Shown here: piece by piece, positions 3,310 through 30,937 of the stretch
How the letters are laid out: each line of letters begins with the position of its first letter
Position numbering within the stretch: the stretch's first letter is position 1
Assembly: GCA_029882995.1 (NCBI GenBank)
Contig: JAOUJV010000001.1
Span: forward strand, 11,668 to 75,667
Direction of reading: 5' to 3'
From: Gammaproteobacteria bacterium
GTDB taxonomy: Bacteria; Pseudomonadota; Gammaproteobacteria; DAOVJZ01
Length of the DNA: 64,000 nt
Program-made: the position numbers and the translations under genes
Notes under the pieces: generated by a model
What the model was told of the DNA's origin: nothing
Databases searched by the model: none
Seen by the model: the letters and a program-made list of their open reading frames with translations, nothing else

Positions 3310-3311
3310 AT

Positions 3312-8693: not shown

Positions 8694-9974
<1,281 letters not shown>

Positions 9975-9983
9975 GAGTTTCCT

Positions 9984-11363
9984 ATGGATTATTTTCCGCT
10001 TTTTTATCAAATCAAAAATCGACCCTGTCTGGTTGTTGGTGGCGGTGAAGTGGCGTCACGCAAAGTGGCTTTATTACTTAAGGCCAATGCTGATGTGACT
10101 GTGGTATCTCCCGAGCTGGGCGCAACACTGGAACAATGGAAATCAGAAGGCACGATAAAACATATTGCCGGGAAATTCTCACCTGAACAGATCGAAGGAC
10201 AGGTATTGATTATTGCCTGCACAGACGATGAAGCCACCAACAAGCTGGTGCATGAAACGGCAGTAAAAAATAATATTCCGGTCAATGTTGTTGATAACCC
10301 GAAGTTGTGTACCTTTATCGTCCCTTCAATCCTCGATCGTTCGCCCTTGGTGGCGGCTATTTCAACCGGTGGCGCGTCACCGGTACTGGCAAGGTTGTTA
10401 CGGGCACGACTCGAGACTGTAATACCGGCAGGCTATGGCAAACTGGCGGCATTGGCAGGTTCTTTCCGTGACAAGGTAAAACAAAGATTTAGCAACCCGG
10501 CAGATCGCCGTATTTTCTGGGAAAACATGTTGCAGAGTCCGATTGCCGAAATGGTGTTCAGTGGCAAGGACAAAGAGGCAAAAGAAGCGATTGAAAAGGC
10601 ACTGGTCGACGCAGACGAGGTGACCACCGGTGAAGTGTATCTGGTTGGCGCAGGGCCGGGTGATCCTGATTTACTTACATTCCGTGCATTACGTTTAATG
10701 CAGCAGGCCGACGTGATTGTTAATGATCGTCTGGTTTCGAAAGAAATTATGGAGCTATGCCGTCGTGACGCAGAAATAATCTATGTCGGTAAGGAAAGGG
10801 ATAAACATGCTGTTCCGCAGGAAGACATTAACCAGATTCTGGTCAGACTGGCGAAAGAGGGCAAGCGTGTTTGTCGTTTAAAGGGTGGTGATCCTTTTAT
10901 CTTTGGTCGTGGCGGTGAAGAAATCGAAACATTGGCTGCTGAGCAAGTGCCGTTTCAGGTGGTGCCCGCTATTACAGCCGCCTCCGGTGCGGCTTCTTAT
11001 GCCGGTATTCCACTGACACACCGTGATTACTCACAGTCAGTAACCTTCGTGACCGGTAATCGTAAGGATGGTACGGTTGATCTGAACTGGAAGGCACTAG
11101 CACATAAAAACCAGACTATTGTATTTTACATGGGGCTGATGGGAATCGAGATTATCTGCAAGCAAATGATCGCTCACGGTTTACCTGAAACAACACCGGT
11201 TGCACTCGTTCAAAAGGCAACCACACCGGAACAAAAAGTCTTTATTGCCGATCTCGCATCAATGCCTGATCTGGTTAAGTCCTCTGATATTCAACCACCA
11301 ACACTGATTATTGTTGGCGAGGTTGTTAACCTTCACAAGAAACTCTCCTGGTTTCATTCATAA
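9984..11363 (+). CDS. cysG: Siroheme synthase (precorrin-2 dehydrogenase/sirohydrochlorin ferrochelatase + uroporphyrinogen-III C-methyltransferase)
   Basis: 459 aa. N-terminal NAD-binding VVGGGEVASRKV, C-terminal methyltransferase GAGPGDPDLLT. Confidence 0.9.
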   Translation: MDYFPLFYQIKNRPCLVVGGGEVASRKVALLLKANADVTVVSPELGATLEQWKSEGTIKHIAGKFSPEQIEGQVLIIACTDDEATNKLVHETAVKNNIPVNVVDNPKLCTFIVPSILDRSPLVAAISTGGASPVLARLLRARLETVIPAGYGKLAALAGSFRDKVKQRFSNPADRRIFWENMLQSPIAEMVFSGKDKEAKEAIEKALVDADEVTTGEVYLVGAGPGDPDLLTFRALRLMQQADVIVNDRLVSKEIMELCRRDAEIIYVGKERDKHAVPQEDINQILVRLAKEGKRVCRLKGGDPFIFGRGGEEIETLAAEQVPFQVVPAITAASGAASYAGIPLTHRDYSQSVTFVTGNRKDGTVDLNWKALAHKNQTIVFYMGLMGIEIICKQMIAHGLPETTPVALVQKATTPEQKVFIADLASMPDLVKSSDIQPPTLIIVGEVVNLHKKLSWFHS

Positions 11364-11409
11364 CCTTTTATTTCGACATATAAGTCTTTACTTAATAAGA
11401 TTTTGCTAA

Positions 11410-11423
11410 TTGATATTAGTCAA
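11410..11423 (+). promoter_or_regulatory. FNR/Dnr-type box TTGATattaGTCAA upstream of the molybdoenzyme operon
   Basis: Exact TTGAT-N4-GTCAA palindrome in the AT-rich intergenic region ~200 nt upstream of the 11621 start. A further TTGAC lies at ~11445. Confidence 0.35.
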
Positions 11424-11620
11424 CAGATCAGCAAATGATCGATGTTGACTTCTATAAAGGCGTTTATACTCCATCAGCTGTTAATTAAAGAGTTATTAAC
11501 TAATGTCGTTTGGTATGTAATCTGTTGTATTAGTGCAGCATAAATGGCTTGTAGATTAATTTATGGGTTCTGTCAGCAGGTTGTTGTATTGGATTAGTTC
11601 TATAGAAATTATTTTATTAC

Positions 11621-12523
11621 ATGGCTTCAGACAATAATAAGAAATCATCTTCAGAGAACGGCAAAACCGAGACTAAAAATCATCGCCGTACTTACGGTAT
11701 TCAGACTCCCGGGACCAAAGGTATTGCAGGAACAAAGCGTTATGCAATGGTTGTTGATCTCCGGAAATGCATTGGATGTATGTCTTGCGTAGTAGCATGC
11801 AAATCCGAGTTCGGTGTTCCTTTAGGTGTTTGGCGAACCTGGGTTAAGGTTTCAGATAAAGGAACATATCCAAATACAAAGCGGATGTTCATGCCGCGTC
11901 TTTGTAATCACTGTGACTATCCGGTTTGTGTACGTAACTGTCCAACTCAGGCCACCTTCAAGCATAAGGATGGTTTTGTGTTACAGCGATACAATCGTTG
12001 TATAGGTTGTCGCACCTGTATTGTTGCCTGTCCTTATAATGCACGCCATATTTTGCCTGCAAAGCGCAGTGACAAGAATCTTCCCTATGAAGTTGTAGAT
12101 AAATGCACTTTTTGTTTTCACAGAGTGAAAAAAGGACTGGTTCCTGCATGTGTTCAGGCCTGTGTTGGTGGTGCACGAATTTTTGGTGATTTGAATGATC
12201 CTAAAAGCGAAATAGCCAGAATTGTAGCAGGAGAGACAGTAACTGTCTTGAAGCCGGAGCTCGGTACACAGCCATCTGTTTTTTATATTGGTGCAGATTG
12301 GGAAATGATGGATGAGACGCACAGTTACAATAATCGAACAGTTCAGCTTAAGCAGGAGTTTAATGACTTCAAGAGAAACCATGTCGTGGATGGATATGGT
12401 GATATTGTTGAAGGTGAATCGACTATGCGTCAGGTTGGAAAGAATATGGGTGATTTCCTGAATTCAATACCACATAAGGCTTCTGAGGTTGTCAAGGCCT
12501 TTAAGAAACTCCTTTTTGAATAG
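11621..12523 (+). CDS. 4Fe-4S ferredoxin-type electron-transfer subunit of a CISM molybdoenzyme (TtrB/PsrB-like)
   Basis: 300 aa with four Cys clusters (CIGCMSCVVAC, CNHCDYPVCVRNCP, CIGCRTCIVACP, CTFC...C). Confidence 0.75.
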   Translation: MASDNNKKSSSENGKTETKNHRRTYGIQTPGTKGIAGTKRYAMVVDLRKCIGCMSCVVACKSEFGVPLGVWRTWVKVSDKGTYPNTKRMFMPRLCNHCDYPVCVRNCPTQATFKHKDGFVLQRYNRCIGCRTCIVACPYNARHILPAKRSDKNLPYEVVDKCTFCFHRVKKGLVPACVQACVGGARIFGDLNDPKSEIARIVAGETVTVLKPELGTQPSVFYIGADWEMMDETHSYNNRTVQLKQEFNDFKRNHVVDGYGDIVEGESTMRQVGKNMGDFLNSIPHKASEVVKAFKKLLFE

Positions 12524-12532
12524 GAATTATTA

Positions 12533-13465
12533 ATGGGGTATGCGTTAACAACAATGGCAGAAAGTAGCGTAGTTATTGCGAATGCGTTTCATCATGTCGC
12601 ATGGGGAACGCCTATTTCTGTTTATTTCTGGCTTGTTGGTGCAAGCGCAGGCTCATTTGTGATTTCAAGTTTTGGCTGGGTATTTGGTATTAAGCGATAC
12701 AAGCCTCTGGCTATGACAGCATCATTGCAGGCGATTGTTCTTTTATTGATTGTGCCAATTTTATTAATCTGGGATCTGGGGAAACCGGTTCGGTTTATTT
12801 ACCTGATGTTACCGGGTTACTGGCATAGCACTGGCCCCATGGCATGGGGTTCTCTGTTGATTTTTTCTTATCCTATTTCCATGATCGTGTATGTCTGGTT
12901 TGTAATGAAGAATGATCTGTTCTGGGCCAAAACAACGGGTATTATTGCGATTGTATTGGCTATATCTACTCACTGGTATACAGGTGTGGTAATGGAACTT
13001 AATCCAGGACGATTCATTAACCATACTGCACTGGCTCCGTTACTTTTCCTTACCGGTGCATTTATATCTGGCATCGGATTGTTGATCCTGATCCTCTGGG
13101 TTCAAAATATGATCGTTGCAGTTAAAAAGCGGATCGACTGGTCACTGATGGAGGAGATGGCTCAATACATGATGTATGGCATTGTGTTTGACTGTTTTCT
13201 GCTTTTCCTTGAATTTATGCAGACATTTTATGGTAACCAGCATGAGCTTGAAGGTCATGAAACGGTGCTTATGGGTATATTCAGATTCCCTTACCTTTGG
13301 TTAGAACTGGTAATAGGTTTGATTATTCCTTTTTTCATTCTTGTTTCACCACTCAAAAGAAATAAATACGGGATCATACTCGCATCTTTCCTCGTCGCCA
13401 TAGGTGTTTATGGCATGAGGGTCTGGTGGGTAATGGGTGGCCAATATATGCAAACATTCTTTTAA
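12533..13465 (+). CDS. NrfD/PsrC-type integral membrane quinol-interacting anchor subunit (TtrC-like)
   Basis: 310 aa polytopic membrane protein located between the FeS and catalytic subunits. Confidence 0.65.
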   Translation: MGYALTTMAESSVVIANAFHHVAWGTPISVYFWLVGASAGSFVISSFGWVFGIKRYKPLAMTASLQAIVLLLIVPILLIWDLGKPVRFIYLMLPGYWHSTGPMAWGSLLIFSYPISMIVYVWFVMKNDLFWAKTTGIIAIVLAISTHWYTGVVMELNPGRFINHTALAPLLFLTGAFISGIGLLILILWVQNMIVAVKKRIDWSLMEEMAQYMMYGIVFDCFLLFLEFMQTFYGNQHELEGHETVLMGIFRFPYLWLELVIGLIIPFFILVSPLKRNKYGIILASFLVAIGVYGMRVWWVMGGQYMQTFF

Positions 13466-13476
13466 GGGAAAAGTCA

Positions 13477-15837
13477 GTGCCAAAGATTAATAGACGTGAT
13501 TTTCTGAAAGCAGGTACAGCAATTACAACTGCTGTTGCCTGTCCCGGTATTGTCACTTCAATGGAGCTCGAACTTGGTGGTTCAGACTTTCATCAGATCA
13601 GAACATTCCATCCCCGTGAACGTAATCCCTATCTGTGTACCATGTGTCCGTATTTTGATGGTGGCTTCACTTATGGTGAGGCTGGCAGGATTATGAAGGT
13701 TGAAGGAAACCCTGATCATATTGCATCACGAGGGAAATTTTGTTCAAAAGGTCTTGCATCGTTCTTTAGTGCTGTCGATCCTGACAGGATTCTTGCTCCA
13801 TTAAAGCGAGTAGGTGCGCGTGGAGAAGGTAAATGGGAAGAAATCAGCTGGGAGCAGGCAATCAAGGAAGTATCCGAGAAAGTAGAACAGGCCATGAAGG
13901 TGGGCGCTGATACGGTCTGTCTCAACGAAGGGGCGTTCAAGGAAACTGGTACGATCCGTTTTATGGATACTATCGGTTCACGGTCAGTAGTTCGCAGTCG
14001 GTTTCCATCAGTGAGTAGTACAACAAAACAAATGGTGCTTAAAAAGGCACTTGGAGTTGATTTTGTTTTACCCGATCTTGAGCATACAAAATATGTATTG
14101 AGCTTTGGTGGAAATATTCTTGAAACGGCATTTCCGCTCGCACAGCGATTGACAGATGGAATTGTAAATAATCGATTGAAGCTGGTGACATTTGATGTGC
14201 GACTTTCAAATACGGCCGGCAAGAGTAATGAGTGGATTCCTGTTTTTCCCGGTAGCGATGGTATCGTTGCAATGACAATGGCCAATGTCATTATGCAGGA
14301 AGGATTGGCTGATACCGGATTTATTGACAGGTGGACCAATCTTTCAAGTAAAGCATTGGCGAAAGGATTGGCAAAATATACACCGGCTATAGCAGAGCAA
14401 GCCAGCGGTGTTCCTGCAGAAAGTATCAGACGTATTGCGATTGAGTTTGCAAGTGAGAAATCAGGAGCAATTTTTACTCAAAATGGTATCAGTTATCATC
14501 AGAATTCTGTTGATAATGAAATGGCTTGTTTTCTGCTGTCTGTTATTACAGGCAATATTGATAATAAAGGTGGCAACTGTCTTCCAAGACAATTTGATAT
14601 TGCTTCATTCAAACCGGTACCTGCCAAAAAGGGAAGTGTGGTAAGAAAACTAAATCATAGTTTCCCATTTGAAGTGAAAGAAGGGTCACGCAAGGTTCAG
14701 GTGTTGTTTAATCATATGAGTAATCCTGTTTATTCATCGCCTGCTTCAAGTGTATGGCGTGAAGTATTGAAGGATGAATCACAAATCCCGTTCATCGTTG
14801 ACTTTAGTCCTTTCATGAGTGAAACATCAGAGCTCGCAGATATTATTTTGCCGGACGTTGTTGCTACAGAACGTGATGATGTGGCGAGTAGTCCGACAGC
14901 ACTTTTGCCATGGGCAAGCATGACCATTCCTGGAGTAAAGCCACAAGGAAAGGTGCAGGATGTCAGGATAACACTCAAGAAAATTATTGAGGCACTTGAC
15001 CCGGACGGTACACGAGGAATGAAAAAATACTGGGATTTTGCCAACACAAGAGAATGGGTGAAAAAAGAGGTAGAAGCAACCAGGGGTCTTGAGGATGGAT
15101 ATAAAAAGTTAAAGTCATCAGGGGTTTGGCCAGATTATGGAAAAATTGATCTGACAACAAGACAAATCATGAATAAGGGGCAGCCGATTACGGGTGAATA
15201 CAATACGTATACTAAAAGCGGGTTTAAAACTGCTTCCGGAAAAATTGAAATTAAAATACCTGTATGGACGCCAAATCCACGCCATGCACAAATGCAGCCA
15301 AACGAGTTTGTACTGAGCACATTCAAGGTTGCTTATCATACTAATTCAATGACATCGAATCTCAAATATCTCTCGGAAATATGGCATTCCAATCCGCTCT
15401 GGATTAATAAACAAACCGCAGCAAAACTCGGAATTGGTGATGGTGGATTGGTAAGAGTCACAAGCGATGCAGGATACATGGTGACAAAAGCATGGTTGAC
15501 ACAGGGTATTCATCCACAGGTGGTTGGTATGTCTACTTCAGTTGGACGCTCAGCATATGGGCGTGTTGCTCAGGCTGATCCTGATGCCGAACTTGCATTT
15601 CCGGGATCAGGACAACAAAACGATCCGGATATTGATGAAAATATATGGTGGCGTGATACTGGAATCAATCCGAACGACATTATTCCAATTTCACTTGATC
15701 CGGAAACTGGTGTTCAGACGTGGAACGATACAGTTGTTACGGTTACCCCTGCTGAAGCAGGAGATCAATATGGTGATATTAAGGCAGATAACGACCGTCA
15801 TTTTGCTATTTACAAAAAAATGCTTGGGAAGGTCTGA
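13477..15837 (+). CDS. Molybdopterin oxidoreductase catalytic subunit with Tat signal (TtrA/PsrA-family)
   Basis: Probable GTG start at 13477 with an RBS. Twin-arginine motif NRRDFLKAG. N-terminal Cys motif CTMCPYF...C of Mo-bisPGD enzymes. ~786 aa. Confidence 0.75.
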   Translation: MPKINRRDFLKAGTAITTAVACPGIVTSMELELGGSDFHQIRTFHPRERNPYLCTMCPYFDGGFTYGEAGRIMKVEGNPDHIASRGKFCSKGLASFFSAVDPDRILAPLKRVGARGEGKWEEISWEQAIKEVSEKVEQAMKVGADTVCLNEGAFKETGTIRFMDTIGSRSVVRSRFPSVSSTTKQMVLKKALGVDFVLPDLEHTKYVLSFGGNILETAFPLAQRLTDGIVNNRLKLVTFDVRLSNTAGKSNEWIPVFPGSDGIVAMTMANVIMQEGLADTGFIDRWTNLSSKALAKGLAKYTPAIAEQASGVPAESIRRIAIEFASEKSGAIFTQNGISYHQNSVDNEMACFLLSVITGNIDNKGGNCLPRQFDIASFKPVPAKKGSVVRKLNHSFPFEVKEGSRKVQVLFNHMSNPVYSSPASSVWREVLKDESQIPFIVDFSPFMSETSELADIILPDVVATERDDVASSPTALLPWASMTIPGVKPQGKVQDVRITLKKIIEALDPDGTRGMKKYWDFANTREWVKKEVEATRGLEDGYKKLKSSGVWPDYGKIDLTTRQIMNKGQPITGEYNTYTKSGFKTASGKIEIKIPVWTPNPRHAQMQPNEFVLSTFKVAYHTNSMTSNLKYLSEIWHSNPLWINKQTAAKLGIGDGGLVRVTSDAGYMVTKAWLTQGIHPQVVGMSTSVGRSAYGRVAQADPDAELAFPGSGQQNDPDIDENIWWRDTGINPNDIIPISLDPETGVQTWNDTVVTVTPAEAGDQYGDIKADNDRHFAIYKKMLGKV

Positions 15838-15872
15838 ATGTGTGATGTAAATAATAAAAGAGGCTTTCTATT

Positions 15873-16541
15873 GTGAAACTTCCTGCCACCAGGAACGGGA
15901 TTATTGTACTTGCGGTTGCAGGTATTATTCTCTTGTTTATCATTCTTGTCCTTTCCTGGAGTAGTACACGTTTTACCAGAATCAGTGTTTGCGAAACCTG
16001 TCATGAAATATTTGTTGATTATAATGAATATAAGCCAATAGGCGAGGTGAGCAAGTCAGTAGAAGATTACAATCCATCTAAAGAATATGACCCCGGCTTA
16101 TTTAATGTAACAGTAGGTTGCGCTGAATGTCATGCTTATCCATATAATGAATACAAAGAGTCACCTCATTACGATAATGAGAAGAATGTGCGCCCAGGTT
16201 GTGTAGGGTGTCATGAGCCACATAGTGTACGTGAAATTCTTAGCTGGAAGTTTTTCTATATAAACTCAGGCAGTTTGGGAGAAAGCCCGTTTCATGCCAT
16301 TTCAAATAGTTTGAGAGATGTTGGCGAATGGGAAGACTTGCGCATTAAACTGGCGAAACGAGTACGCGAAAAAATGGTTTCTGATAAAAGTGTCAAATGT
16401 CAAGCGTGCCACAAAACCGAAAGTGAATGGTTTAATAATATAGCGCGTCATAAAACGATGAAAGAAAGTGGCAAAACCTGTATTAATTGTCATTACAACC
16501 TTGTTCATGACGATGTGGAATGGCACGATAAAGATGAATAA
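15873..16541 (+). CDS. NapC/NirT/TorC-family membrane-anchored multiheme cytochrome c (five CxxCH motifs)
   Basis: N-terminal TM helix and motifs CETCH, CAECH, CVGCH, CQACH, CINCH. GTG start with an AAAAGAGG RBS. Confidence 0.75.
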   Translation: MKLPATRNGIIVLAVAGIILLFIILVLSWSSTRFTRISVCETCHEIFVDYNEYKPIGEVSKSVEDYNPSKEYDPGLFNVTVGCAECHAYPYNEYKESPHYDNEKNVRPGCVGCHEPHSVREILSWKFFYINSGSLGESPFHAISNSLRDVGEWEDLRIKLAKRVREKMVSDKSVKCQACHKTESEWFNNIARHKTMKESGKTCINCHYNLVHDDVEWHDKDE

Positions 16542-16941
16542 CAGTTTGCAAATGCTGGTATCGTCTGTTGCTGCCGAGACTAAGGGATATGCTGTTATTA
16601 ACAAGATAGAGGCCCGGTTTTATCAAAAGCTGATGCGATTATCCAGAAATCAACTTGCCGCGATCAAAAAGAGGCTGGCAGGTGATGCAGGCAAGTGGGA
16701 TACCTTTGTGTTTTTGATTAGAAATAGAAGTATAAAAAAAATCATTCTAAAAATTATTAATATAAAAGAGGCAAGAATTGGTGAACAAGCACTCCCTGAG
16801 ATGATGGATGATTATCGAAATATTGAAGCAGACAAAAAAAACTGGAAGGGAGTGAGTAAAGAAGAACTCGATTATATTCGTGCCATGGTCCACGGCTTAA
16901 GAGATGTAACTGAGGGCGATGTAAATCAGCCTCCAGAATAG
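16534..16941 (+). CDS. hypothetical protein
   Basis: ATG overlaps the upstream stop (ATGAATAA). 135 aa, no recognizable motif. Confidence 0.35.
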   Translation: MNNSLQMLVSSVAAETKGYAVINKIEARFYQKLMRLSRNQLAAIKKRLAGDAGKWDTFVFLIRNRSIKKIILKIINIKEARIGEQALPEMMDDYRNIEADKKNWKGVSKEELDYIRAMVHGLRDVTEGDVNQPPE

Positions 16942-17076
16942 CAGTTTTAGGGGGATTGTATTTTGTTATAAAACAGTGCCTTTTCCAGTGTCACAGGACT
17001 TTGGTGAGGCACATACCATTGAAATAGAATCGTTGAAACGGTCAAAATGGTATTAACCATCATGAGGAAATGGAAA

Positions 17077-18660
17077 ATGAAAAAACTATTAACTGGGATA
17101 TCAACGATTATTACGACAAGCGTTTTAATCACAGGGGTGGCAACTGCTGCAAAATTACAGCCGGTACCAACGCTATCTAAGGCGGAAATGGAAAAATCAT
17201 CGGCAATCTATTTTGATCGCTGTTCTGGTTGTCATGGTGTATTAAGAGGTGGTGCAACAGGCCCTGATATCACACCAGAAAAAACTCGCAAGAAAAAGCT
17301 GAAATCGCTGGAAAGAATTCTGTATGAAGGTACTGATGGTGGTATGCCGGGTTGGGGTAAAGATGGCTATATAACTAAAGCCGAAACCAAAATGTTAGCA
17401 AAATATTTGCAGATTAAACCACCCATTCCACCCGAATGGGATATGAAAAAAACCATGGCTTCCTGGAAAGTCCATGTTCCAGTCAGTAAACGCCCTACCA
17501 AAGCACCTAATACAAACTGGCAGAATTATTTTGGTGTGGTTCAGCGTGATGCCGGATTAGTCACTATTGTTGATGGCGATACCAAGGAAAAAATCGTTAC
17601 CTTAAAATCAGGCTTTGCTACTCATATTTTGAGGTCATCTTCAACAGGTCGTTATATGTATGCAATTGGCCGTGATGGTAAAGCCAGCATGATGGATATG
17701 TGGGCAACCCCTCCTAATCTTGTTGCTGAAGTTAGAACTGGTATTGATGCGCGTTCTATTGACACAAGTAAATATAAAGGCTTCGAGGACAAGTATGTAA
17801 TTGTAGGTAACTACTGGCCTTCTCATTATATGATCCTGAAAGGTGACACACTGGAACCTATCAAGATTGTGGGCACTTCCGGTTATACACATGACACAAA
17901 TGAGTACCGTTTAGAATCACGTGTTGCTGCTATCGTAGCTTCACATCATGCACCTGAGTGGCTTCTTAACCTGAAAGAACTGGGTATAGTGATGCTGGTC
18001 GATTACAGTAAGGTTGACCATGGCACTGTGACTGAAACCATGATTGATGCTGAGCGTGCCTTGCATGATGGTGGTTGGGATTCAACCAAGCGTTATTTTC
18101 TGGCAGCTGCGAACATGCGTGATACTATTTCAGTTATTGATACTGTAGAACGCAAGCTGGTTAAAAATATCAAGGTAGGCACCAAGCCACATCCTGGTCG
18201 TGGTGCAAACTGGATTGACCCTGAATTTGGCCGTGTTTGGGCAACCGTTCATCTTGGTGAAGGACTGGTTTCTATTATAAGCACCGACCCTTCAAAGAAA
18301 TATGCCTGGACGGTAGTAAGAGAGTGGGAACTGGATGGGAACTCACTATTTATTAAAACCCACGATAACAGTGAGTGGGTATATTGTGATAATACTATTA
18401 ACAAGGAAAAGAGTAAGACGCTGACCATCTTCAATAAGAACAATCCAGATGCCAAGCCAAAAGAAATCACCTTTGAGAAAAATGTTGTGCATATGGAATA
18501 TAACAAGGCAGGTGATGAAGTATGGGTTTCTCTTTGGGACGCAGAGGGTGAAGTTGTTGTGATTGATGATAAAACTCTTAATATCAAAAAGAGAATTAAA
18601 GGGCTTGATTCACCAACTGGTAAATTCAATGTCTATAATACAACGCATGATATTTACTAG
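17077..18660 (+). CDS. nirS: Cytochrome cd1 nitrite reductase family protein (NirS/NirN-like: c-heme domain + d1 beta-propeller)
   Basis: Signal peptide MKKLLTGIST..., heme-c site CSGCHGVLRGGATGPD, ~527 aa. GAGGA RBS before the 17077 ATG. Confidence 0.7.
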   Translation: MKKLLTGISTIITTSVLITGVATAAKLQPVPTLSKAEMEKSSAIYFDRCSGCHGVLRGGATGPDITPEKTRKKKLKSLERILYEGTDGGMPGWGKDGYITKAETKMLAKYLQIKPPIPPEWDMKKTMASWKVHVPVSKRPTKAPNTNWQNYFGVVQRDAGLVTIVDGDTKEKIVTLKSGFATHILRSSSTGRYMYAIGRDGKASMMDMWATPPNLVAEVRTGIDARSIDTSKYKGFEDKYVIVGNYWPSHYMILKGDTLEPIKIVGTSGYTHDTNEYRLESRVAAIVASHHAPEWLLNLKELGIVMLVDYSKVDHGTVTETMIDAERALHDGGWDSTKRYFLAAANMRDTISVIDTVERKLVKNIKVGTKPHPGRGANWIDPEFGRVWATVHLGEGLVSIISTDPSKKYAWTVVREWELDGNSLFIKTHDNSEWVYCDNTINKEKSKTLTIFNKNNPDAKPKEITFEKNVVHMEYNKAGDEVWVSLWDAEGEVVVIDDKTLNIKKRIKGLDSPTGKFNVYNTTHDIY

Positions 18661-18688
18661 ATAACTGTAAAGATGCTATAAGCAACAA

Positions 18689-18718
18689 GGGCTAAGGCTG
18701 TCGCCTTAGCCCATTTTT
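18689..18718 (+). terminator. Rho-independent terminator (gggctaaggc tgtc gccttagccc + T-run)
   Basis: 10 bp perfect stem followed by ttttt immediately after the nirS-like stop. Confidence 0.55.
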
Positions 18719-18733
18719 AGAGAGGTGTGAAAT

Positions 18734-19171
18734 ATGAAAATTAAAAACCTAATTTATTATTCTGTTGGGATAACACTGGTGGCAGCAAGCATGGTGACTC
18801 ATGCGGCAGATCGAAAAATAGAAACGGCCCCACCTGAGTTTCTTAAAATGAGTAATCCAAATGATGTGGATGATGTTGATAAGAAAATCATGAAAAATGC
18901 CAAGAAGCTGTATAAAATGAAATGTAAAAAATGCCATGGTTCAGATGGAGATGGAAAAGGCTCAGCTGCGGATGATATGGAAGTCAAGCCTACAGCATTT
19001 AACAAACCGGGTTACCTTAAAACAAGAAAAGACGGGCAACTATTCTGGATATTGAAAAAGGGAAGTAAAGGTAGTGAAATGGAGGGATTCGGCCCAGGTA
19101 CAGATGCTAATTTGTCTGATGAAGAAATGTGGGGAATAATTACTTATATGCGCTCTGAATTTACTAAATAA
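18734..19171 (+). CDS. Class I c-type monoheme cytochrome (c55x-like, probable electron donor to cd1 nitrite reductase)
   Basis: 145 aa with a signal peptide and a single CKKCHG motif. Confidence 0.7.
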   Translation: MKIKNLIYYSVGITLVAASMVTHAADRKIETAPPEFLKMSNPNDVDDVDKKIMKNAKKLYKMKCKKCHGSDGDGKGSAADDMEVKPTAFNKPGYLKTRKDGQLFWILKKGSKGSEMEGFGPGTDANLSDEEMWGIITYMRSEFTK

Positions 19172-19194
19172 CGTTTAATCTGCTGTACAAATCA

Positions 19195-19231
19195 CCTGTC
19201 CTGATTATTTGTCAGGACAGGTTTTATTTTT
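19195..19231. terminator. Bidirectional terminator hairpin between convergent genes
   Basis: cctgtcctgattatttgtcaggacagg flanked by T-runs on both strands. Confidence 0.55.
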
Positions 19232-19871
19232 GAATCAACCCCTGTTCCACAGCAAAGACTGCCGCTTCAACACGCGAATGCATATTCAGTTTTCTTAAAA
19301 TGGCCTTAACATGAAGTTTAACTGTGCCATCCGAAATACCGAGGTTGCGTGCAATAATCTTGTTGCTGTGACCTTCAGCCAGCTGCCCAAGAATTTCTGT
19401 TTCACGTGGCGTTAAGTCAGAAAGGGGAGAATCAATAACCGGTTCTGATTCAGGCGAGGGGCCTCTGATGACTTTCGCCATTATGCTGGCCAACTCTGGC
19501 GCGACCACCATTCCTCCCTGTTCAATCTCACGCAGTGCCTTGACCAGATCGTCTGGTTCCATATCTTTTAGCAGATAACCTTGTGCACCGCTTTTCAGGC
19601 AGTTGATTAAATCCTGTTCCTCTATGCTGGTGGTGAGCATGGCAATAGGCATGGTTAATCCGTTTTCACGTAAGGTTTTCAGTGCAGATAAACCATCCAT
19701 GTCTGGCATACGTAAATCCAGCAGGATGATTTCCGGCCCAAGTTCTTTGGCCAAATCAATTCCTTCGCTAGCGCGGCTGACCGAGGCAACAACCGTGATC
19801 CCACGTCTTTCCAGCAATGTTTCCAGTCCGGCGCGGAAAAGGGCGTGATCATCAACAAGTAAAATACGCAT
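19224..19871 (-). CDS. narL: NarL/FixJ-family response regulator (REC + LuxR HTH)
   Basis: MRILLVDDHALFRAGL receiver; C-terminal LTPRETEILGQLAEGHSNKIIARNLGISDGTVKLHV. Confidence 0.8.
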   Translation of the reverse strand: MRILLVDDHALFRAGLETLLERRGITVVASVSRASEGIDLAKELGPEIILLDLRMPDMDGLSALKTLRENGLTMPIAMLTTSIEEQDLINCLKSGAQGYLLKDMEPDDLVKALREIEQGGMVVAPELASIMAKVIRGPSPESEPVIDSPLSDLTPRETEILGQLAEGHSNKIIARNLGISDGTVKLHVKAILRKLNMHSRVEAAVFAVEQGLIQK

Positions 19872-19894
19872 TAATACAAATTTCCTTTCTTCTG

Positions 19895-21502
19895 TTATTC
19901 CGGATAATTAAATGACAATATGACCTGCGTGCCTTCACCGGGCTCGCTTTCAATAGTCAATGTTGCCTTGATACGTTGTGCGCGTTCCTGCATCACAGAT
20001 TGACCAATATGATGACCTCCAGATGAAAGTGATGTTTCTTCCTCTACAACGCCGACACCATCATCTTCAATCAAAATACGATACTGACCTTTGCCATTAC
20101 AGTGAAGCATAATGCGGGCAGTGTGAGCCTGACTGTGTTTTTTAATATTGGCCAATGATTCCTGAATAATACGTAATATCTGCACTTCATAATCAGGTGG
20201 TAAATCTATATCACGACAATCTTTATGCAAGAACACCTTTATGTCTGTTTGTTTTTCAAACTGACTGACAATTTCCTCAAGTGCCGGCACAAGACCGCGC
20301 TCATCCATTCGAATACGGAAGTGGGACATGAGTTCACGCAATTCTTTGTTGGCATGCTCAAGTCCATTTTCGATTTTTTCAATTTCTTCAAGTGCCATTT
20401 TATTATCTACTTGCTGGAGTGTCATATCGAGCATGCGCACCTGAAAGCGTAAGCTGGCAAAGGTTTGCGCCAGTGAATCATGTAGTTCGTTTGCCAGCAT
20501 GGCGCGTTCCTGCATGATTGAAAGACGCTGTGTTTCATGGTCAAGTCGTGATTTTTCGATTGCCAGCCCCAGATGTCGACCCAGACCGGTTAAGAGTTCC
20601 TGAATATCTTTATCGTTGGCGCTGGAATCTGACTCAACAAATAATTTACAAATGCCGACGTTTTTGTCGTGATGCTGAAGTGGTACTGCAATCATGCGCA
20701 GTAACTTTCCTTTATGCAGGGGTTGCGCAATATTGACGGGATAATTTTTCAGTTTTGTATGGCTGAGGATTTCACCTTCTGAAATCTGGTTACCTATCAT
20801 ACAGGCTTCGGAACTGATTAACTGGAATTTTTCGACAATGTCCTTTTCCAGCCCCTTGCTGGCGAGCAGTTTCAGTTTTCCTTCCGGTGTCAGTAATCGA
20901 ATACTGCCAGCGCGCGCAGACACAATATCCATTAACGTATCAAGCGTTCTTTCAAGCAGGTCATTCAGATCTCGGGATACATTTAATCTGGCTGCGACAT
21001 CATATAACACTTCCAGCGATCGTGTTTTTTGTGCCAGATTGCTGGTTTGCATGGCAACCATTTCATCTACATTATAAACAAGTGCGCTGTATTCCTTGCC
21101 GAAACGATTGAGTTCATCAATCAGATCCCACAGATGGCCTTTCTCATCCTGATCAATTTGTGCAAAGAACTCACCACCATGCATGCTGTGCGCCCATCTT
21201 TGAATGTCACGCAACGGGTGCAATAGATATTTGTATATACGATAGATAATAAGTGCGGTGATACCGAGCAAGCCTATGGTTGCTGTCATTAACAGCGGTA
21301 TGAATATCTCTGTACTGTTATTGTAAAAAACCTGCAGTGAGGCAATGGTGATTACCAGTAACAATAGTGAGAATACGATTAACGGTTGTGCCAGACGTGA
21401 TTTGACTATCCAGTCGTGAATAATATTTCTGGCATCACTGTTTTTTTGCCAGGCATTGACCTGAATTTCAGAATTTACTGGCTTTCCATCGACTGAGGGC
21501 AT
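19895..21502 (-). CDS. narX: NarX/NarQ-like nitrate/nitrite sensor histidine kinase (HisKA_3 + HATPase)
   Basis: Two N-terminal TM helices and H-box ANELHDSLAQTFASLRF. The ATPase domain carries GxGxG boxes. Adjacent to narL. Confidence 0.75.
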   Translation of the reverse strand: MPSVDGKPVNSEIQVNAWQKNSDARNIIHDWIVKSRLAQPLIVFSLLLLVITIASLQVFYNNSTEIFIPLLMTATIGLLGITALIIYRIYKYLLHPLRDIQRWAHSMHGGEFFAQIDQDEKGHLWDLIDELNRFGKEYSALVYNVDEMVAMQTSNLAQKTRSLEVLYDVAARLNVSRDLNDLLERTLDTLMDIVSARAGSIRLLTPEGKLKLLASKGLEKDIVEKFQLISSEACMIGNQISEGEILSHTKLKNYPVNIAQPLHKGKLLRMIAVPLQHHDKNVGICKLFVESDSSANDKDIQELLTGLGRHLGLAIEKSRLDHETQRLSIMQERAMLANELHDSLAQTFASLRFQVRMLDMTLQQVDNKMALEEIEKIENGLEHANKELRELMSHFRIRMDERGLVPALEEIVSQFEKQTDIKVFLHKDCRDIDLPPDYEVQILRIIQESLANIKKHSQAHTARIMLHCNGKGQYRILIEDDGVGVVEEETSLSSGGHHIGQSVMQERAQRIKATLTIESEPGEGTQVILSFNYPE

Positions 21503-21630
21503 AGTGCTACGCTAACTCGTTGTATCAGAAAAGGAATTTTAGCAGATTATGAGGTTTGCGGCTTCAGCCTGTATGTTGCTGTTTTTGTTACCAGAACTGG
21601 CCAAAAATAACTCAGATTCAGAGAGTTACC

Positions 21631-21957
21631 TTAGGTTGAGGTGTTTTCTTCTGATACGGTTTGTTGGGCAGGGTCATTAGGGTTGATAAAAATGAACTGG
21701 AACTCGCCCGGCGTTAACTCAACAAAATCCAGGGTTGTACCACGCAGGAGTGGAACATGTTCGTCATAGATAATCACTTCGATTTCTTCTGAAACCACTT
21801 CCATATCGCTCGGGCCTTTGTCATCAAAACCCATTCCATACTCAATCGCACCTTCCTGATTCTTTTTCGCGGCCAGTCGCAGGGACATTTTTTCCATATT
21901 GCCTTCTTTCGCAGCGGTGCGAATCTGGGCAGCAGCTTGAGGTGTAATCGTAATCAT
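21631..21957 (-). CDS. dsrR: DsrR (IscA/HesB-like A-type carrier homolog lacking the conserved cysteines)
   Basis: Starts MITITPQAAAQIRTAA with an IscA-like fold signature but no Cys. Last gene of the dsr operon, directly after dsrN. Confidence 0.7.
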   Translation of the reverse strand: MITITPQAAAQIRTAAKEGNMEKMSLRLAAKKNQEGAIEYGMGFDDKGPSDMEVVSEEIEVIIYDEHVPLLRGTTLDFVELTPGEFQFIFINPNDPAQQTVSEENTST

Positions 21958-21961
21958 GTGT

Positions 21962-23344
21962 CTATTGTAACCTTTCCTGTTTAATTTTTCGCGCAAAGTT
22001 GATAAATCGTTCAGCCCAATGATTGCTTTCAACATCTCGCAGATGCAAATAGCAGGCTGTCATATTCTTGTGTACGATACCGTCATTTCTGCCATTAACG
22101 CCATATCCACGCAGGATCTTGTAGCTATATCGGGTGTTAATAGGCAGTTTTTCCAGACCTGAGTAATGAAACTCATGCGCTGAATACTCTTTTGATTCCG
22201 ATTCTGAATCCCACAAACCCTTACCGGTTTCGCGTATTCGCACATAACCACGTCCTTGTGGTTTTTCATGCATTACAGTATCGGCCGGTATAACACCGAC
22301 CATGTCGGCGGTCTTGCCGTTCCAGCTTATGGAGCGGGACAGGTACATTAAACCACCACATTCTGCATAAGTCGGTAACCCGGCCTCAATTTTATCGTAA
22401 ATTTCCTTTTTGAGCGATGTGTTGGCTGCCAGAGAGTCCATGTGAGTTTCAGGGAATCCTCCGCCAATAAAGAGGGCATCAATATCAGGGAGGTGAGTAT
22501 CTTTTAAGGTATTGAACGGAACAAATTCAGCGCCGGCATTTTTGAGTGCTTCCAGATCACCGTCATAGTAAAAACCGAATGATTCATCCATGGCAATACC
22601 GAGCTTGATATCGGGGGCATGCGTCTGCACAGACTGTGCTGTGACTGAACTGATATCGGGTGAGGTTTTCTGCGCAATGGCATCGAGGCTATCCAGATCA
22701 ACCTGTTGCTCAATCAGATGACAAATTTCATTAATGCGTTGATCCGATGTTTGTTCCTCGTTACTCGGAATAAGCCCCAGATGACGTTCAACGATATTGA
22801 GTTTTTTATCGTAATGCACAGCACCTAATACTGGCACATCAGTGTAGTGTTCAATGACAGCCCTAAGCTTGGATTCATGCCGTGAACCGCCGAGATTGTT
22901 AAGGATCACACCATTTATATTAATGTCCTTGTCGAAATCCTGATAACCACGAATAAGTGGTGCAACACCACGCGTCATACCACGTGCATCTATCACCAGA
23001 ATAACCGGTGCCTTTAGAAGATGGGCAAGGGCGGCATTACTATTACTGCCGTCCAGATCGAGACCGTCATAGAGTCCTTTGTTGCCTTCGATAATACTGA
23101 TATCAGACTGGGTGTCGAAGCGATTAAACGTAGCGAGAATTTCTTCATTCGACATGAGGTAAAAATCGAGATTATGACAAGGGCGATTTGCCGCCTTTTT
23201 CAGCCACATGGGATCAATATAATCCGGGCCTTTTTTAAAGGGCTGAACAATTTTTCCACGTCGGGTAAAAGCAGCACACAGGCCAAGCGACACGGTAGTT
23301 TTACCGGATGATTTATGTGCGGCTGAAATGAGCAGTCGGGACAT
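21962..23344 (-). CDS. dsrN: DsrN, cobyrinic acid a,c-diamide synthase (CbiA/CobB) homolog (siroheme amidase)
   Basis: 460 aa with a P-loop SSGKTTVSLGL and a C-terminal glutamine amidotransferase domain. Position in the dsr operon. Confidence 0.85.
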   Translation of the reverse strand: MSRLLISAAHKSSGKTTVSLGLCAAFTRRGKIVQPFKKGPDYIDPMWLKKAANRPCHNLDFYLMSNEEILATFNRFDTQSDISIIEGNKGLYDGLDLDGSNSNAALAHLLKAPVILVIDARGMTRGVAPLIRGYQDFDKDININGVILNNLGGSRHESKLRAVIEHYTDVPVLGAVHYDKKLNIVERHLGLIPSNEEQTSDQRINEICHLIEQQVDLDSLDAIAQKTSPDISSVTAQSVQTHAPDIKLGIAMDESFGFYYDGDLEALKNAGAEFVPFNTLKDTHLPDIDALFIGGGFPETHMDSLAANTSLKKEIYDKIEAGLPTYAECGGLMYLSRSISWNGKTADMVGVIPADTVMHEKPQGRGYVRIRETGKGLWDSESESKEYSAHEFHYSGLEKLPINTRYSYKILRGYGVNGRNDGIVHKNMTACYLHLRDVESNHWAERFINFARKIKQERLQ

Positions 23345-23443
23345 GGTGTCTTGTTTCCTGTTATAAGTTATTTACAGCCTTTCGATAGCTGCGGGTCTCA
23401 GACAAAAGACCGTATTAACAGGAACTAAGTATAGTACGTATGA

Positions 23444-24652
23444 TTACGCTGTTTTATGGTGAGGGTCTACGTCTGAATCAGCCAAAGAAGCAGGCAGGAA
23501 TGGCATTATTTTGATAGCGAATGTCACTGCTGCCAATGCCAGTGCAATACCACCAATACCAAGTCCGATTTCATAAATGCTTGGTGTGTAGCTGTTGATG
23601 ACACCATCATAAAATGAGCTGGTTATTTCCTTGCCTGGGAACAGTATCAATGGATAGGCTTGTCCACCAATGATAATGGTATACATAAGTGCAAGACCAC
23701 CAAGAACAACCAGTATCGCGCCTAATGCAACCAGTGTGCGATTCTTACCCATTGGGCTATAAAAAATGGCAAGCGGAATGAGACCACCGATGACAACAGC
23801 ACCCAACCAGAATATCTGTGTATAAATTCCGCCATTCATCAGAATAAAGGCTTCAACACCATGGTGTTCAGTGGCATATAGATTAGTCAGATGATAGGCC
23901 AGCAGGAAGTAGAGCACAGCGGCCACAAACACGCCCAGCAGGTTCTTCAGTCGATGGAAGACAGCATCGCCCAGTTGACGACCTGTCCAGCCATAGGCGG
24001 CCATAAGAACCAGCATAAAGATAGCCAGACCATATGAGAATGACATGATAATAAACATCGGGGCCATAATGGCAGCATCATAACCCTGACGAGCAACAAG
24101 GAAGCCAAAGATAGAACCAGTACCTGTTGTCAGGATAAGACGCCAGATAAAGGCGCTGACACCGGCTTTATGTGAATGTTTGTTCATGCGGCGTTCCATC
24201 ATGGTCCAGAGATAAATGGCCACAATTACGAAAAAGCCGTTATACAGAATAATGTTCCAGGCAAAAATAGATTTGAAATTATAATTGGTCATCGCAACGA
24301 TCAGGCGATCAGGGCGACCTAAATCAAGCACCAGTACCGCCAGCCCGCCTGCCAGCAATGTAAGGGCAAGTAATGCAGACAGTCTGCTCAAAGGTTTATA
24401 CATTGGTTTACCAAACACAGACGCAATGGATGCAACATTAAGTGCACCGGATGCAGCGACAATCAGGAACACAGCAAAAACGTGAGGAGTGCCCCAGACG
24501 ATCTGGTTATTCATGCCAGAGATATAGTGACCATGGTGCTCCATCATATAGAAGGCAATGCCGGCCAGACCCATAATGGCACCAAAGATGGCTAACAAGG
24601 CCCAGTAACCTAAACTGTCGCCTTCAATGGAGGTATAAGTAACATGTTTCAT
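23444..24652 (-). CDS. dsrP: DsrP, NrfD-type integral membrane protein of the DsrMKJOP complex
   Basis: 402 aa polytopic membrane protein following dsrO. Confidence 0.85.
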   Translation of the reverse strand: MKHVTYTSIEGDSLGYWALLAIFGAIMGLAGIAFYMMEHHGHYISGMNNQIVWGTPHVFAVFLIVAASGALNVASIASVFGKPMYKPLSRLSALLALTLLAGGLAVLVLDLGRPDRLIVAMTNYNFKSIFAWNIILYNGFFVIVAIYLWTMMERRMNKHSHKAGVSAFIWRLILTTGTGSIFGFLVARQGYDAAIMAPMFIIMSFSYGLAIFMLVLMAAYGWTGRQLGDAVFHRLKNLLGVFVAAVLYFLLAYHLTNLYATEHHGVEAFILMNGGIYTQIFWLGAVVIGGLIPLAIFYSPMGKNRTLVALGAILVVLGGLALMYTIIIGGQAYPLILFPGKEITSSFYDGVINSYTPSIYEIGLGIGGIALALAAVTFAIKIMPFLPASLADSDVDPHHKTA

Positions 24653-24676
24653 AAATATCTCCGGAATCCCTGTTTA

Positions 24677-25444
24677 TTATATGCCGCGGTAACGAACACC
24701 AGTGTTCAAACCAAGGTCGGCGCGAATCTGAGCACTGTTGTACTCGCGCAGTTGTTTTGATATTTCGCTGTTAGGGTCATTCAAGTTACCAAACACAATC
24801 GCGTTATGACCGGCTTTTGAACAGGCTTCCGCACAGGCTGTAGTACGACCGGCATCGACACGGTGGACACACATAGTGCAGGATTCAACAGTTCCCTTGC
24901 CACGTGGTGCATGTTCTTTTTGATCAGTAATAGTCTCGTGTATGAATGAACGTGCTTTATACGGGCAGGCCATCATGCAATATCGACAGCCGATACAGAT
25001 ATGCTTGTCTACAAGCACGATACCATCCGCACGTTTCATTGAAGCGCCAGTTGGGCAAACATCGACACAAGGTGGTGTTTCGCAATGCTGACACATCACA
25101 GGCAAGCTGGTTGTTTTGCCGGTTTGATTGTCTTTTAAATCAACTTTTCGAATCCATTGTGGATCTGTAAGAGGGCGATCATTTGTGCCAACACCGTTTT
25201 CGGTATGGCATGCAGTGACACAGTCATTACAGTCAGAAGCACATTTATTGGCATCAATCAGCATTCCCCAACGGTTTTCACTTGATGCACCTTTACCGTC
25301 AATTTTGACTGACTCACCAACATGCGCATGAGCTACAGAGTAGAGCATGACGCCGGGTGCGATAGCTACAGTTGCAGCTGCACCGGTTGCTTTACCTAAA
25401 AATTCACGTCTGTTCGGGTCGTGTTTTTTTACGTTGCTACTCAT
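24677..25444 (-). CDS. dsrO: DsrO, periplasmic ferredoxin-like FeS protein with Tat signal
   Basis: RREFLGKATGAAA twin-arginine motif and multiple CxxCxxCxxxCP clusters. Confidence 0.85.
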   Translation of the reverse strand: MSSNVKKHDPNRREFLGKATGAAATVAIAPGVMLYSVAHAHVGESVKIDGKGASSENRWGMLIDANKCASDCNDCVTACHTENGVGTNDRPLTDPQWIRKVDLKDNQTGKTTSLPVMCQHCETPPCVDVCPTGASMKRADGIVLVDKHICIGCRYCMMACPYKARSFIHETITDQKEHAPRGKGTVESCTMCVHRVDAGRTTACAEACSKAGHNAIVFGNLNDPNSEISKQLREYNSAQIRADLGLNTGVRYRGI

Positions 25445-25447
25445 ATA

Positions 25448-25909
25448 TTAATTATCCGTTGTGTTCTGGTTCTGGACCAGTTTATTTAACAGAACCGAGT
25501 CATTGTCGTTATGAGAATGACTCATATCATGCGAGCCTTGTTGAGGCTTTGTTGCATGACACTCGAAACAGTCAAGTTTGACGCTGGCATAACTGTGACA
25601 GCTTTGACAGAACTGACCTTCATCTGTAATCGAAACAAATTGTCCTGCATCGTCTTTCTTGGCATGGCAGGCAATACATTCTTTAAGGCTGAATTCCTTT
25701 GTGCGTACACCTTCGCGCAATGTCTTGTCACGCTTGTGCGACAGATAATGCATGTGGTTTTTACGCATATCATCAGCAGGTCTAACGCATTGCTCACCTT
25801 TGCCCTTGGTGATTTCAGGCATTGGAACACGACTGTTCTCGGCAACTGCTGGCAGACTGGCAAAAACCAGTCCGAGCAGCGCGATAAAAAATAGTCGTAT
25901 ATTTTTCAT
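25448..25909 (-). CDS. dsrJ: DsrJ, triheme periplasmic cytochrome c
   Basis: Start MKNIRLFFIALLG (signal peptide) chosen because the longer ORF would overlap dsrL. Three heme sites CIACH, CQSCH, CFECH. Confidence 0.8.
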   Translation of the reverse strand: MKNIRLFFIALLGLVFASLPAVAENSRVPMPEITKGKGEQCVRPADDMRKNHMHYLSHKRDKTLREGVRTKEFSLKECIACHAKKDDAGQFVSITDEGQFCQSCHSYASVKLDCFECHATKPQQGSHDMSHSHNDNDSVLLNKLVQNQNTTDN

Positions 25910-25910
25910 T

Positions 25911-27908: not shown

Positions 27909-27941
27909 GTTTTCTTCTCCTACTATCAGGAAAACTATAAG

Positions 27942-29441: not shown

Positions 29442-29448
29442 GAGCTCC

Positions 29449-30183: not shown

Positions 30184-30253
30184 CTGGTCATGATCTCCGC
30201 GCAAAATTAGAAGCGGGGGCAGTGTTTTTGCCCCCGATATCAATAGGCTGTGA

Positions 30254-30931: not shown

Positions 30932-30937
30932 TATCCC

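Follow-up and report, generated by a model that had tools for sequence, protein, structure and literature searches.

Electron supply to cytochrome cd1 nitrite reductases (NirS) is usually explained by the bc1 complex together with small cytochromes or cupredoxins. A 64,000-nucleotide stretch of contig JAOUJV010000001.1 from a gammaproteobacterium (hereafter the window) raises the question of what else could feed such an enzyme, as nirS lies here downstream of genes encoding an iron–sulfur (FeS) subunit (B), an NrfD-type membrane subunit (C), a molybdoenzyme-like subunit (A) and a pentaheme cytochrome c. We analyzed this B-C-A-pentaheme module in the window and in related genomes. We directly observed its gene content, its synteny with nirS and the changed residues in the active-site columns of A. 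With moderate confidence, we favor a reading of these sequences in which the module is a quinol:cytochrome c oxidoreductase resembling the quinone reductase complex (Qrc) and alternative complex III (ACIII), would feed NirS and would use A mainly as a scaffold. The four proteins make up a conserved and apparently undescribed membrane module whose molybdenum site is altered.

The module and its link to nirS

The cluster comprises seven genes on the same strand, separated by short gaps or overlapping:

11621-12523, + strand: subunit B, PsrB-like FeS protein with four clusters (PF13247)
12533-13465, + strand: subunit C, NrfD-type integral membrane subunit (PF03916, 112 bits over its full length)
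13477-15837, + strand: subunit A, molybdenum-bis(pyranopterin guanine dinucleotide) (Mo-bisPGD) fold (PF00384, PF01568) with a twin-arginine translocation (Tat) signal
15873-16541, + strand: pentaheme cytochrome c of the NapC/NirT family (PF03264, 95.6 bits; cut-off 24.1)
16534-16941, + strand: X, small conserved helical protein
17077-18660, + strand: nirS, cytochrome cd1 nitrite reductase (PF02239, 380 bits)
18734-19171, + strand: monoheme cytochrome c, 145 residues, class I, periplasmic (PF00034, PF13442)

The inventory given in the initial annotation proved real throughout, including the B-C-A order, the pentaheme NapC/NirT cytochrome, the cd1 protein and the monoheme cytochrome, and the same cluster was found in two Joint Genome Institute (JGI) metagenomes with concordant gene calls. 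PF00384 with PF01568, PF13247 and PF03916 all exceeded their Pfam cut-offs in genes encoded together, which is the architecture of complex iron–sulfur molybdoenzymes (CISM).

Subunit B contains 16 Cys residues arranged as four ferredoxin-type groups. Its match to PsrB in the PDB (2vpw_B) had an E value of 1.3e-54 and 189 bits, compared to only 70-80 bits for ActB. Toward NCBIfam models, B scored 220.5 bits for TtrB (cut-off 416), 208 for DsrO (cut-off 200), 157 for NrfC (378) and 124 for QrcC (400). Assignment of B as DsrO was rejected, as the true dsrO (24677-25444) and dsrP (23444-24652) sit in a dsr operon. B has no signal peptide of its own and is therefore presumably co-exported with A. 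Subunit C, a protein of 310 residues encoded by the single NrfD gene of the cluster, has no cofactors and is presumed to provide the site for quinol. The single C sequence gave no match in the PDB, and the profile of its family matched only ActF (2e-05) and ActC (0.0065) of ACIII, PsrC not being found. The open reading frame (ORF) of subunit A opens at 13426. GTG 13477 is the likely start, because the Tat motif that it yields, MPKINRRDFLK, matches the N termini of homologs.

The pentaheme cytochrome has an N-terminal transmembrane helix (residues 7-33) and five CxxCH motifs at residues 40, 83, 110, 176 and 203. Toward the subfamily model TIGR02161, it scored 59 bits against a cut-off of 310.6. 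The 145-residue cytochrome c at the end of the cluster has one CKKCH motif and a Sec-type N terminus. It is presumed to be the direct electron donor to NirS, which it accompanies across loci with 45-64% identity.

The cd1 protein, which had been described as NirS/NirN-type, can be assigned more narrowly. It aligned to NirS of P. aeruginosa (1bl9) with an E value of 1.6e-155 and retains both distal residues, His327 and His369, whereas the match to NirN reached only 3.8e-43. NirN was therefore rejected, and the protein is a true NirS. It is the short form lacking the N-terminal Tyr arm, with the 1bl9 alignment starting at mature residue 24. Module-linked NirS orthologs are 70-88% identical between phyla, compared to only about 50% for the second NirS in the same loci.

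To place the module, 72 relatives were compared, one genome per species, drawn from 80 of 218 genome matches. Clades were taken from a neighbor-joining sketch without characterized outgroups. They are listed with the residues at the FS0 site of A, at the Mo-ligand column (Cys173 of PsrA) and at the PsrA Arg332 column:

Clade I (the clade of the window, 46 loci): FS0 Cys-Cys-Asp-Cys; ligand Gly, Ser or Asn; Arg332 column Asn; pentaheme cytochrome always present
Clade II (Nitrosomonadales, Rhodocyclales and others): no FS0 Cys; ligand not Cys; Arg332 column mostly Arg
Clade III (metagenome-assembled genomes (MAGs) of Nitrospirae and Deltaproteobacteria): FS0 Cys-Cys-Asp-Cys; ligand Cys; Arg332 column Arg; no NirS
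Bacillota and related MAGs: FS0 with four Cys; ligand Cys in 3/6; Arg in 3/6; no NapC/NirT cytochrome and no NirS

The B-C-A-pentaheme order was invariant in all 46 clade I loci (species-representative genomes), whose hosts are Gammaproteobacteria, Rhodospirillaceae, Magnetococcales and a few Deltaproteobacteria or Thermodesulfobacteriota MAGs. NirS and the 145-residue cytochrome c adjoin the module in 25 of the 46. They lie downstream of it in the window, in Thiohalophilus and in most Magnetococcales, and upstream in Arenicellales, Halieaceae, Rhodospirillaceae and Chromatiaceae. In two loci (L001 and L004), the cluster extends into nirE/C/F/D/L/G/H/J/N. The pentaheme cytochrome was found directly 3' of A in every locus with downstream sequence, whether nirS was near or not, and the spacing of its five CxxCH motifs is invariant across clade I and clade II loci. 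Because it stays with A where nirS is absent, the cytochrome belongs to B-C-A and not to nirS; instead of forming half of a nirT-nirS pair, as first supposed, it is the fourth member of the module.

In the clade II loci L066, L067, L069-L072 and L082, the four FS0 Cys residues and the ligand are lost while B and C are kept. The pentaheme cytochrome is present in all except one truncated locus, cytochrome c in 6/7 and NirS in 2/7. With all four FS0 cysteines lost, A of clade II cannot be redox-wired, and the persistence of a nir-linked assembly in this clade thus means that the module is retained even with A redox-disconnected. Most clade III loci have a tetraheme NapC/NirT cytochrome or none, and one has a pentaheme form. 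The pentaheme cytochrome was found only with a Cys-less A, this one clade III locus excepted. In several of the clade III loci L052, L053, L056, L058-L060, L073 and L076, A is preceded by genes for a NapC/NirT cytochrome of the tetraheme type and for an FeS subunit, and an NrfD gene is absent. Clade III has the look of an uncharacterized enzyme family that is probably active.

The altered site of subunit A and a proposed route of electrons

No NCBIfam family cut-off was reached by subunit A. In bits, with cut-offs in parentheses, it scored 271 for PhsA (694), 199 for DmsA/YnfE (778), 170 for QrcB (440), 115 for ArrA (1600) and 110.3 for TtrA (1750). The closest solved structure is Thermus PsrA (126 bits in the PDB), with ActB at 25 bits. 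The initial label of a Ttr-like enzyme therefore reduces to gene order, which alone resembles ttrBCA, as the TtrA and TtrB scores of A and B both lie far below threshold. In the alignment of the window A to PsrA, Cys173 is replaced by Ser/Thr, Arg332 by Gln/Asn and His145 by Gly. A tetrathionate, polysulfide or thiosulfate substrate is not supported either, given the loss of these three residues and a linkage across phyla to nirS and heme d1 genes, not to sulfur genes.

These data also bear on whether B-C-A could be an independent reductase of the tetrathionate, thiosulfate or polysulfide type standing beside a separate NirT-NirS-NirM unit. Such a reductase would account for the ttrBCA gene order, for PhsA and TtrB being the best subthreshold hidden Markov models (HMMs) of A and B, and for PsrA and PsrB being the nearest solved structures. 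However, none of the Ttr, Phs, Psr-like and Arr cut-offs was reached, the Mo-ligand Cys, Arg and His of PsrA are absent, the cytochrome stays with A in loci without nirS nearby, and no ttrRS-type regulators are present; we consider this explanation highly improbable. Genes of the A family are currently annotated as thiosulfate/polysulfide reductase or as 'anaerobic selenocysteine-containing dehydrogenase'.

The changes in A extend through clade I. The Mo-ligand column holds Ser, Gly or Asn and never Cys, although in a few members the next residue is a Cys. Asn is invariant at the Arg332 column and Gly occupies the His145 column. At the FS0 motif, Cys-x2-Cys-x3-Asp...Cys, the third FS0 Cys of PsrA is replaced by Asp. 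The three Cys and the Asp are nearly invariant, two members having four Cys. Relatives of A with 40-47% identity retain the Cys ligand and the Arg. Variability of the ligand loop stands at the 85th percentile in clade I, compared to the 13th percentile in the Cys-bearing clade III, which argues that the active site of the window A has been freed from the constraint acting on its catalytic relatives.

B, C, A and the pentaheme cytochrome would accordingly form one membrane complex, constructed like a CISM enzyme of the polysulfide reductase type but employed for electron transfer, in the direction known from ACIII or NrfBCD. We infer its quinol:cytochrome c oxidoreductase activity only from these components and from the neighboring NirS and cytochrome c. 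In the proposed route, quinol would be oxidized at the periplasmic face of C, and B would relay the electrons along its four [4Fe-4S] clusters to the pentaheme cytochrome anchored in the membrane. The soluble monoheme cytochrome c would take them from there to NirS, where nitrite would be reduced to nitric oxide (NO), so that the route would be independent of bc1. Tat would export A, which would carry B along. Electrons would thus flow from quinol to the acceptor with A catalytically silent, A being probably mainly a scaffold in which the Cys3-Asp FS0 might serve as an extra relay. This reading is favored by the invariant four-gene order, by the linkage to nirS and by the altered and variable ligand site of A. 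It is also favored because B is a complete four-cluster wire and the C profile matches only ActF and ActC in the PDB, because the pentaheme form is tied to a ligand-less A and the FS0-less clade keeps the assembly, and because both the module and the linked nirS have an excess of FNR-type boxes in front of them.

Several observations weigh against it. NapC/NirT proteins oxidize quinol unaided, which leaves the need for both C and the cytochrome unexplained. In 21 of the 46 clade I loci, some of them short, nirS is not adjacent. The AlphaFold2 (AF2) model of the pentaheme cytochrome was too poor (30-sequence alignment; mean predicted local distance difference test (pLDDT) score of 59.7) to support a likeness to ActA, NrfH or NrfB; Foldseek with this model against the PDB gave no match, and sequence and profile searches of the PDB yielded nothing meaningful. 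A itself is much nearer to PsrA and PhsA than to ActB and QrcB (126 and 271 bits versus 25 and 170). Its pterin-dinucleotide motifs G-x-N-x2-E, D-x-R-x-S-x-T-A and P-G-[ST]-D-G are fully conserved, as are N-P-x-Y-S, S-E-T-x2-x-A-D-I-x-L-P and the domain IV motifs. The metal center of arsenite oxidase has no protein ligand, and with pterin motifs and FS0 kept, A may likewise hold molybdenum or tungsten and be active without a ligand.

A would in that case be an active Mo/W-bisPGD enzyme whose metal has no amino-acid ligand and whose Cys3-Asp FS0 is possibly a [3Fe-4S] cluster. It could act on a periplasmic nitrogen or sulfur compound and would be coupled to the quinone pool and, via the pentaheme cytochrome, to NirS. 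Besides the conserved pterin motifs, the conserved FS0 residues and the closeness to real enzymes, this possibility draws on the family-specific, conserved N-terminal motif MELxLGGxDFHQIRTFHPR, which together with the invariant Asn at the Arg332 column suggests a remodeled and not a decayed site, and on an identity of A across phyla of 56-81%. Yet the ligand loop varies more than most other stretches of A, and the gene context shows only electron carriers and nir genes, with no candidate substrate. The FS0-less sister clade also retains equally conserved pterin motifs despite having no redox wiring; because an A that cannot be wired keeps the same motifs, they prove neither activity nor cofactor. 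An active A, the main alternative, therefore seems unlikely, but worth keeping in view. Correspondingly, it is doubtful that A represents a new type of Mo/W enzyme, hard-wired through B and the pentaheme cytochrome to the quinone pool and NirS, in a complex that would link oxidation or reduction of a periplasmic nitrogen or sulfur compound directly to the reduction of nitrite.

The opposite direction of electron flow was also weighed. Working in the direction of Qrc, the module would pass electrons from periplasmic c-type cytochromes to quinone, with NirS a mere neighbor on a shared cytochrome pool. Donors would be sulfur, thiosulfate or extracellular, and the reaction, maybe driven by the proton motive force, would serve reverse electron flow in chemolithoautotrophs. 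In its favor, the module has the same subunit composition as Qrc, the hosts are for the most part sulfur oxidizers and the window contains a full dsr operon. In Beggiatoaceae, the module stands alone with nirS not adjacent, and in Sedimenticola (L086:13359-19356) it is found with a monoheme cytochrome c, 4-5 multiheme cytochrome c7-type proteins that follow the module and an X homolog, NirS being replaced. On the other hand, the link to nirS and heme d1 genes survives rearrangements and, with the FNR-type boxes, points to an anaerobic acceptor branch, and reduction of ubiquinone by high-potential c-type cytochromes is energetically uphill according to established redox potentials. We regard this direction as quite improbable. 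Modules that stand alone or are linked to other cytochromes also fit a general quinol:cytochrome c hub, as expected of the preferred quinol-oxidizing complex. In Candidatus Halobeggiatoa, C and A are separated by an inserted gene (L085:9540-9893) encoding a '23S rRNA intervening sequence protein' (PF05635).

Control regions, protein X and flanking genes

Control elements and genes flanking the cluster are as follows:

9984-11363, + strand: cysG, siroheme synthase, directly 5' of the cluster, with four CysG Pfam domains
11410-11423: box 1, FNR/Dnr-type, TTGATattaGTCAA, centered 205 nucleotides (nt) before the B start codon
17033-17045: box 2, TTGAAACGGTCAA, 13 nt with TTGA-N5-TCAA instead of N6
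18689-18712, + strand: predicted 10-bp stem-loop separating nirS from the cytochrome c gene, a terminator-like match
19194-19222, + strand: strong terminator-like stem-loop closing the cluster, 12 bp followed by the T run TTTATTTTTG
19224-19871, − strand: NarL-type response regulator, convergent (NarL 235 bits; cut-off 250)
19895-21502, − strand: NarQ/NarX-like histidine kinase with a GAF domain (NarQ 221 bits; cut-off 553)

Box 1 is intergenic and matches TTGAT-N4-ATCAA at 9/10 positions. Its symmetry is limited to TTGA...TCAA, so that it is not the perfect palindrome first described, although its assignment as an FNR/Dnr-type site gained comparative support. Sites with at most one mismatch number 13 across the window versus 5.9 +/- 2.4 expected, and box 1 alone is weak evidence given this chance expectation. 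In the fetched loci, boxes with at least 9/10 matches have a background of 0.11 per kb, compared to 14 of about 50 orthologous regions upstream of B, an approximately sevenfold enrichment. Many of these lie about 176-233 nt before the B start, and the closest relative, Thiohalophilus (L006), has a 10/10 box at -213 compared to -205 in the window. Upstream of nirS, such boxes were found in about 10 of 30 regions. Box 1 is credible because orthologous loci carry similar boxes at similar distances, and the cluster is probably switched on at low oxygen via this putative FNR/Dnr-type site at 11410-11423. No good -10 element was found at the canonical distance from box 1 in the window.

Box 2 fared differently. 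Its letters are as initially reported, but its 13-nt spacing is wrong for an FNR-type element, and its distance from the nirS start is only 32-44 nt, where it overlaps a weak sigma-70-like match (17019-17048). In relatives that share the gene order, proper boxes matching at 9-10/10 positions precede nirS by 120-155 nt, whereas in the window the 360 nt in front of nirS contain none with 9/10 or more. With half-sites one base too close and the boxes of relatives elsewhere, box 2 is unsupported as an FNR-type site.

Box 1 is separated from the start codon of B by a leader of about 200 nt (11424-11620), and leaders of orthologs are similarly long. An Rfam scan of 9000-22000 with E values up to 0.1 gave nothing, so that no known RNA element is present in the leader. 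Alignment of upstream DNA from the window, L006 and L007 revealed no conserved blocks except the FNR-like boxes. The convergent two-component pair may regulate the cluster, although its membership is uncertain; a NarL/NarX-like pair likewise flanks the module in a Halieaceae contig. The kinase combines a cytoplasmic GAF domain with two membrane helices, between which the loop measures about 10 residues, and it has no periplasmic sensor domain. It cannot sense periplasmic nitrate in the manner of NarX and may therefore sense a cytoplasmic signal. The adjacent regulator scored 60 bits for TtrR against a cut-off of 290, and TtrRS-type regulators were not present.

The coupling of a small ORF to the cytochrome gene that had been pointed out was confirmed. 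The ATG of X overlaps the stop codon of the pentaheme cytochrome (ATGAATAA), and X is a real conserved gene, with 21 proteins detected in its family and the invariant motifs EMMDDYR and ELDYIRxMVHGLRDV. X recurs near the module in four different arrangements. A signal peptide, a transmembrane segment and Cys are all absent, and the AF2 model (pLDDT 81) is all-helical with four helices. No Pfam or NCBIfam match to X was found, and Foldseek against the PDB gave nothing below an E value of 0.8. A TorD/NapD-like Tat chaperone was considered for X and found unsupported by any result; our guess is that X is a cytoplasmic assembly or export factor.

For heme d1, nirFDLGHJ were not found within the 64-kb window, while they are present beside the module in the relatives L001 and L004. 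The methylase domain of the upstream CysG is 47% identical to a NirE. Siroheme synthase makes the precursor common to the siroheme of Dsr and heme d1.

Beyond the two-component genes lies a complete, convergent dsr operon of the sulfur-oxidizer type (dsrABEFHCMKLJOPNR; 21631-34251, − strand), whose DsrO (24677-25444) and DsrP (23444-24652) are paralogs of B and C. A lone Cas6 gene is found at 36550-37242 (+ strand; PF09559, 203 bits); a scan of the whole window detected no tandem repeats, and the scanned ORFs near Cas6 gave no match to Cas domains. Positions 1-4000 have a low guanine–cytosine (GC) content (33-34% versus about 43% elsewhere) and include a 961-residue ORF (424-3309) without a Pfam match; for both reasons, this part may be foreign DNA. 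At 42587-43024 (− strand), a 145-residue ORF containing internal repeats shares 35-37% identity with an unannotated 217-residue ORF (L004:4626-5279) that lies between the two nirS genes of a Rhodospirillaceae-like contig.

Relation to known respiratory complexes

In the open-access literature, no description of the module was found, only other proposals of ACIII-like complexes. None of the complexes covered by a 2021 review of NrfD-containing complexes is linked to NirS (PMC8076601), and a genome paper on Magnetococcales discusses nirS without mentioning the module (PMC6783814). Other ACIII-like complexes have been proposed near nitrogen-cycle genes (10.64898/2026.01.22.701106; PMC10732223). 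The module belongs among the respiratory complexes of the CISM/NrfD kind, its nearest counterparts in logic being Qrc and ACIII, and would be a new member of them if the preferred reading is correct. It would then define a bc1-independent branch of denitrification with a dedicated quinol-oxidizing complex that is possibly energy-conserving. Organisms that have the module beside nirS include sulfur oxidizers (relatives of Beggiatoaceae, Sedimenticola and Thiohalophilus), Magnetococcales and marine Rhodospirillaceae. The Cys-bearing enzyme, the ligand-less form with FS0 and the FS0-less form would represent a graded series from molybdoenzyme to electron-transfer scaffold, and the current sulfur-reductase annotations would mislead metabolic reconstructions of sulfur cycling.

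Compared to PsrABC and PhsABC, the module shares the Tat export arrangement and the three-subunit core, and these systems provide its nearest structures and best HMMs. It differs in having no equivalents of Cys173, Arg332 and His145, in the Asp at the third FS0 Cys, in the additional obligatory pentaheme cytochrome and in its nir linkage. With TtrBCA, it shares the order of FeS, membrane and catalytic subunits, an order also seen in uncharacterized relatives, whereas it has no Mo-ligand Cys, no TtrRS and no Tat signal on B.

Two systems that supply nitrite reductases were also compared. NirT of P. stutzeri, a membrane-anchored NapC/NirT cytochrome encoded beside nirS (nirSTBM), is thought to feed NirS from quinol. 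The module cytochrome differs from it by having five hemes instead of four, by always following A whether nirS is present or not and by its TIGR02161 score (59 versus 311). In E. coli, an NrfD subunit, a four-cluster FeS protein and a pentaheme cytochrome (NrfBCD) similarly deliver electrons from quinol to a periplasmic nitrite reductase. However, a Mo-like subunit is missing from Nrf, NrfB is a soluble protein that is not of the NapC/NirT type, and the electrons reach NrfA, which forms ammonia, whereas NirS forms NO. B also scored far below the NrfC cut-off (157 versus 378 bits).

Qrc of sulfate reducers consists of a membrane-associated multiheme cytochrome c, a ligand-less, Tat-exported subunit of the molybdopterin family, a four-cluster FeS protein and NrfD (PMC8076601). 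The module has the same four kinds of subunit, a resemblance of architecture only. Scores for QrcB (170 versus 440) and QrcC (124 versus 400) are far under the cut-offs, the cytochrome of Qrc is a c3-like hexaheme in contrast to the NapC/NirT-type pentaheme, and the module keeps the FS0 site in A and has the order B-C-A-cytochrome. With NirS as its partner, flow would probably run from quinol to acceptor, opposite to Qrc.

With ACIII, the module shares its proposed job, quinol:cytochrome c oxidoreduction, and both have a membrane-anchored pentaheme cytochrome, a Mo-like domain (cofactor-less in ACIII), a four-cluster FeS protein and a monoheme cytochrome c. In ACIII, the Mo-like and FeS parts are fused in ActB, whereas A and B are separate in the module, which has no ActD and a single NrfD subunit of 310 residues where ACIII has both ActC and ActF. 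B resembles PsrB (189 bits) more closely than ActB (70-80 bits), and the match between A and ActB is weak, at 25 bits.

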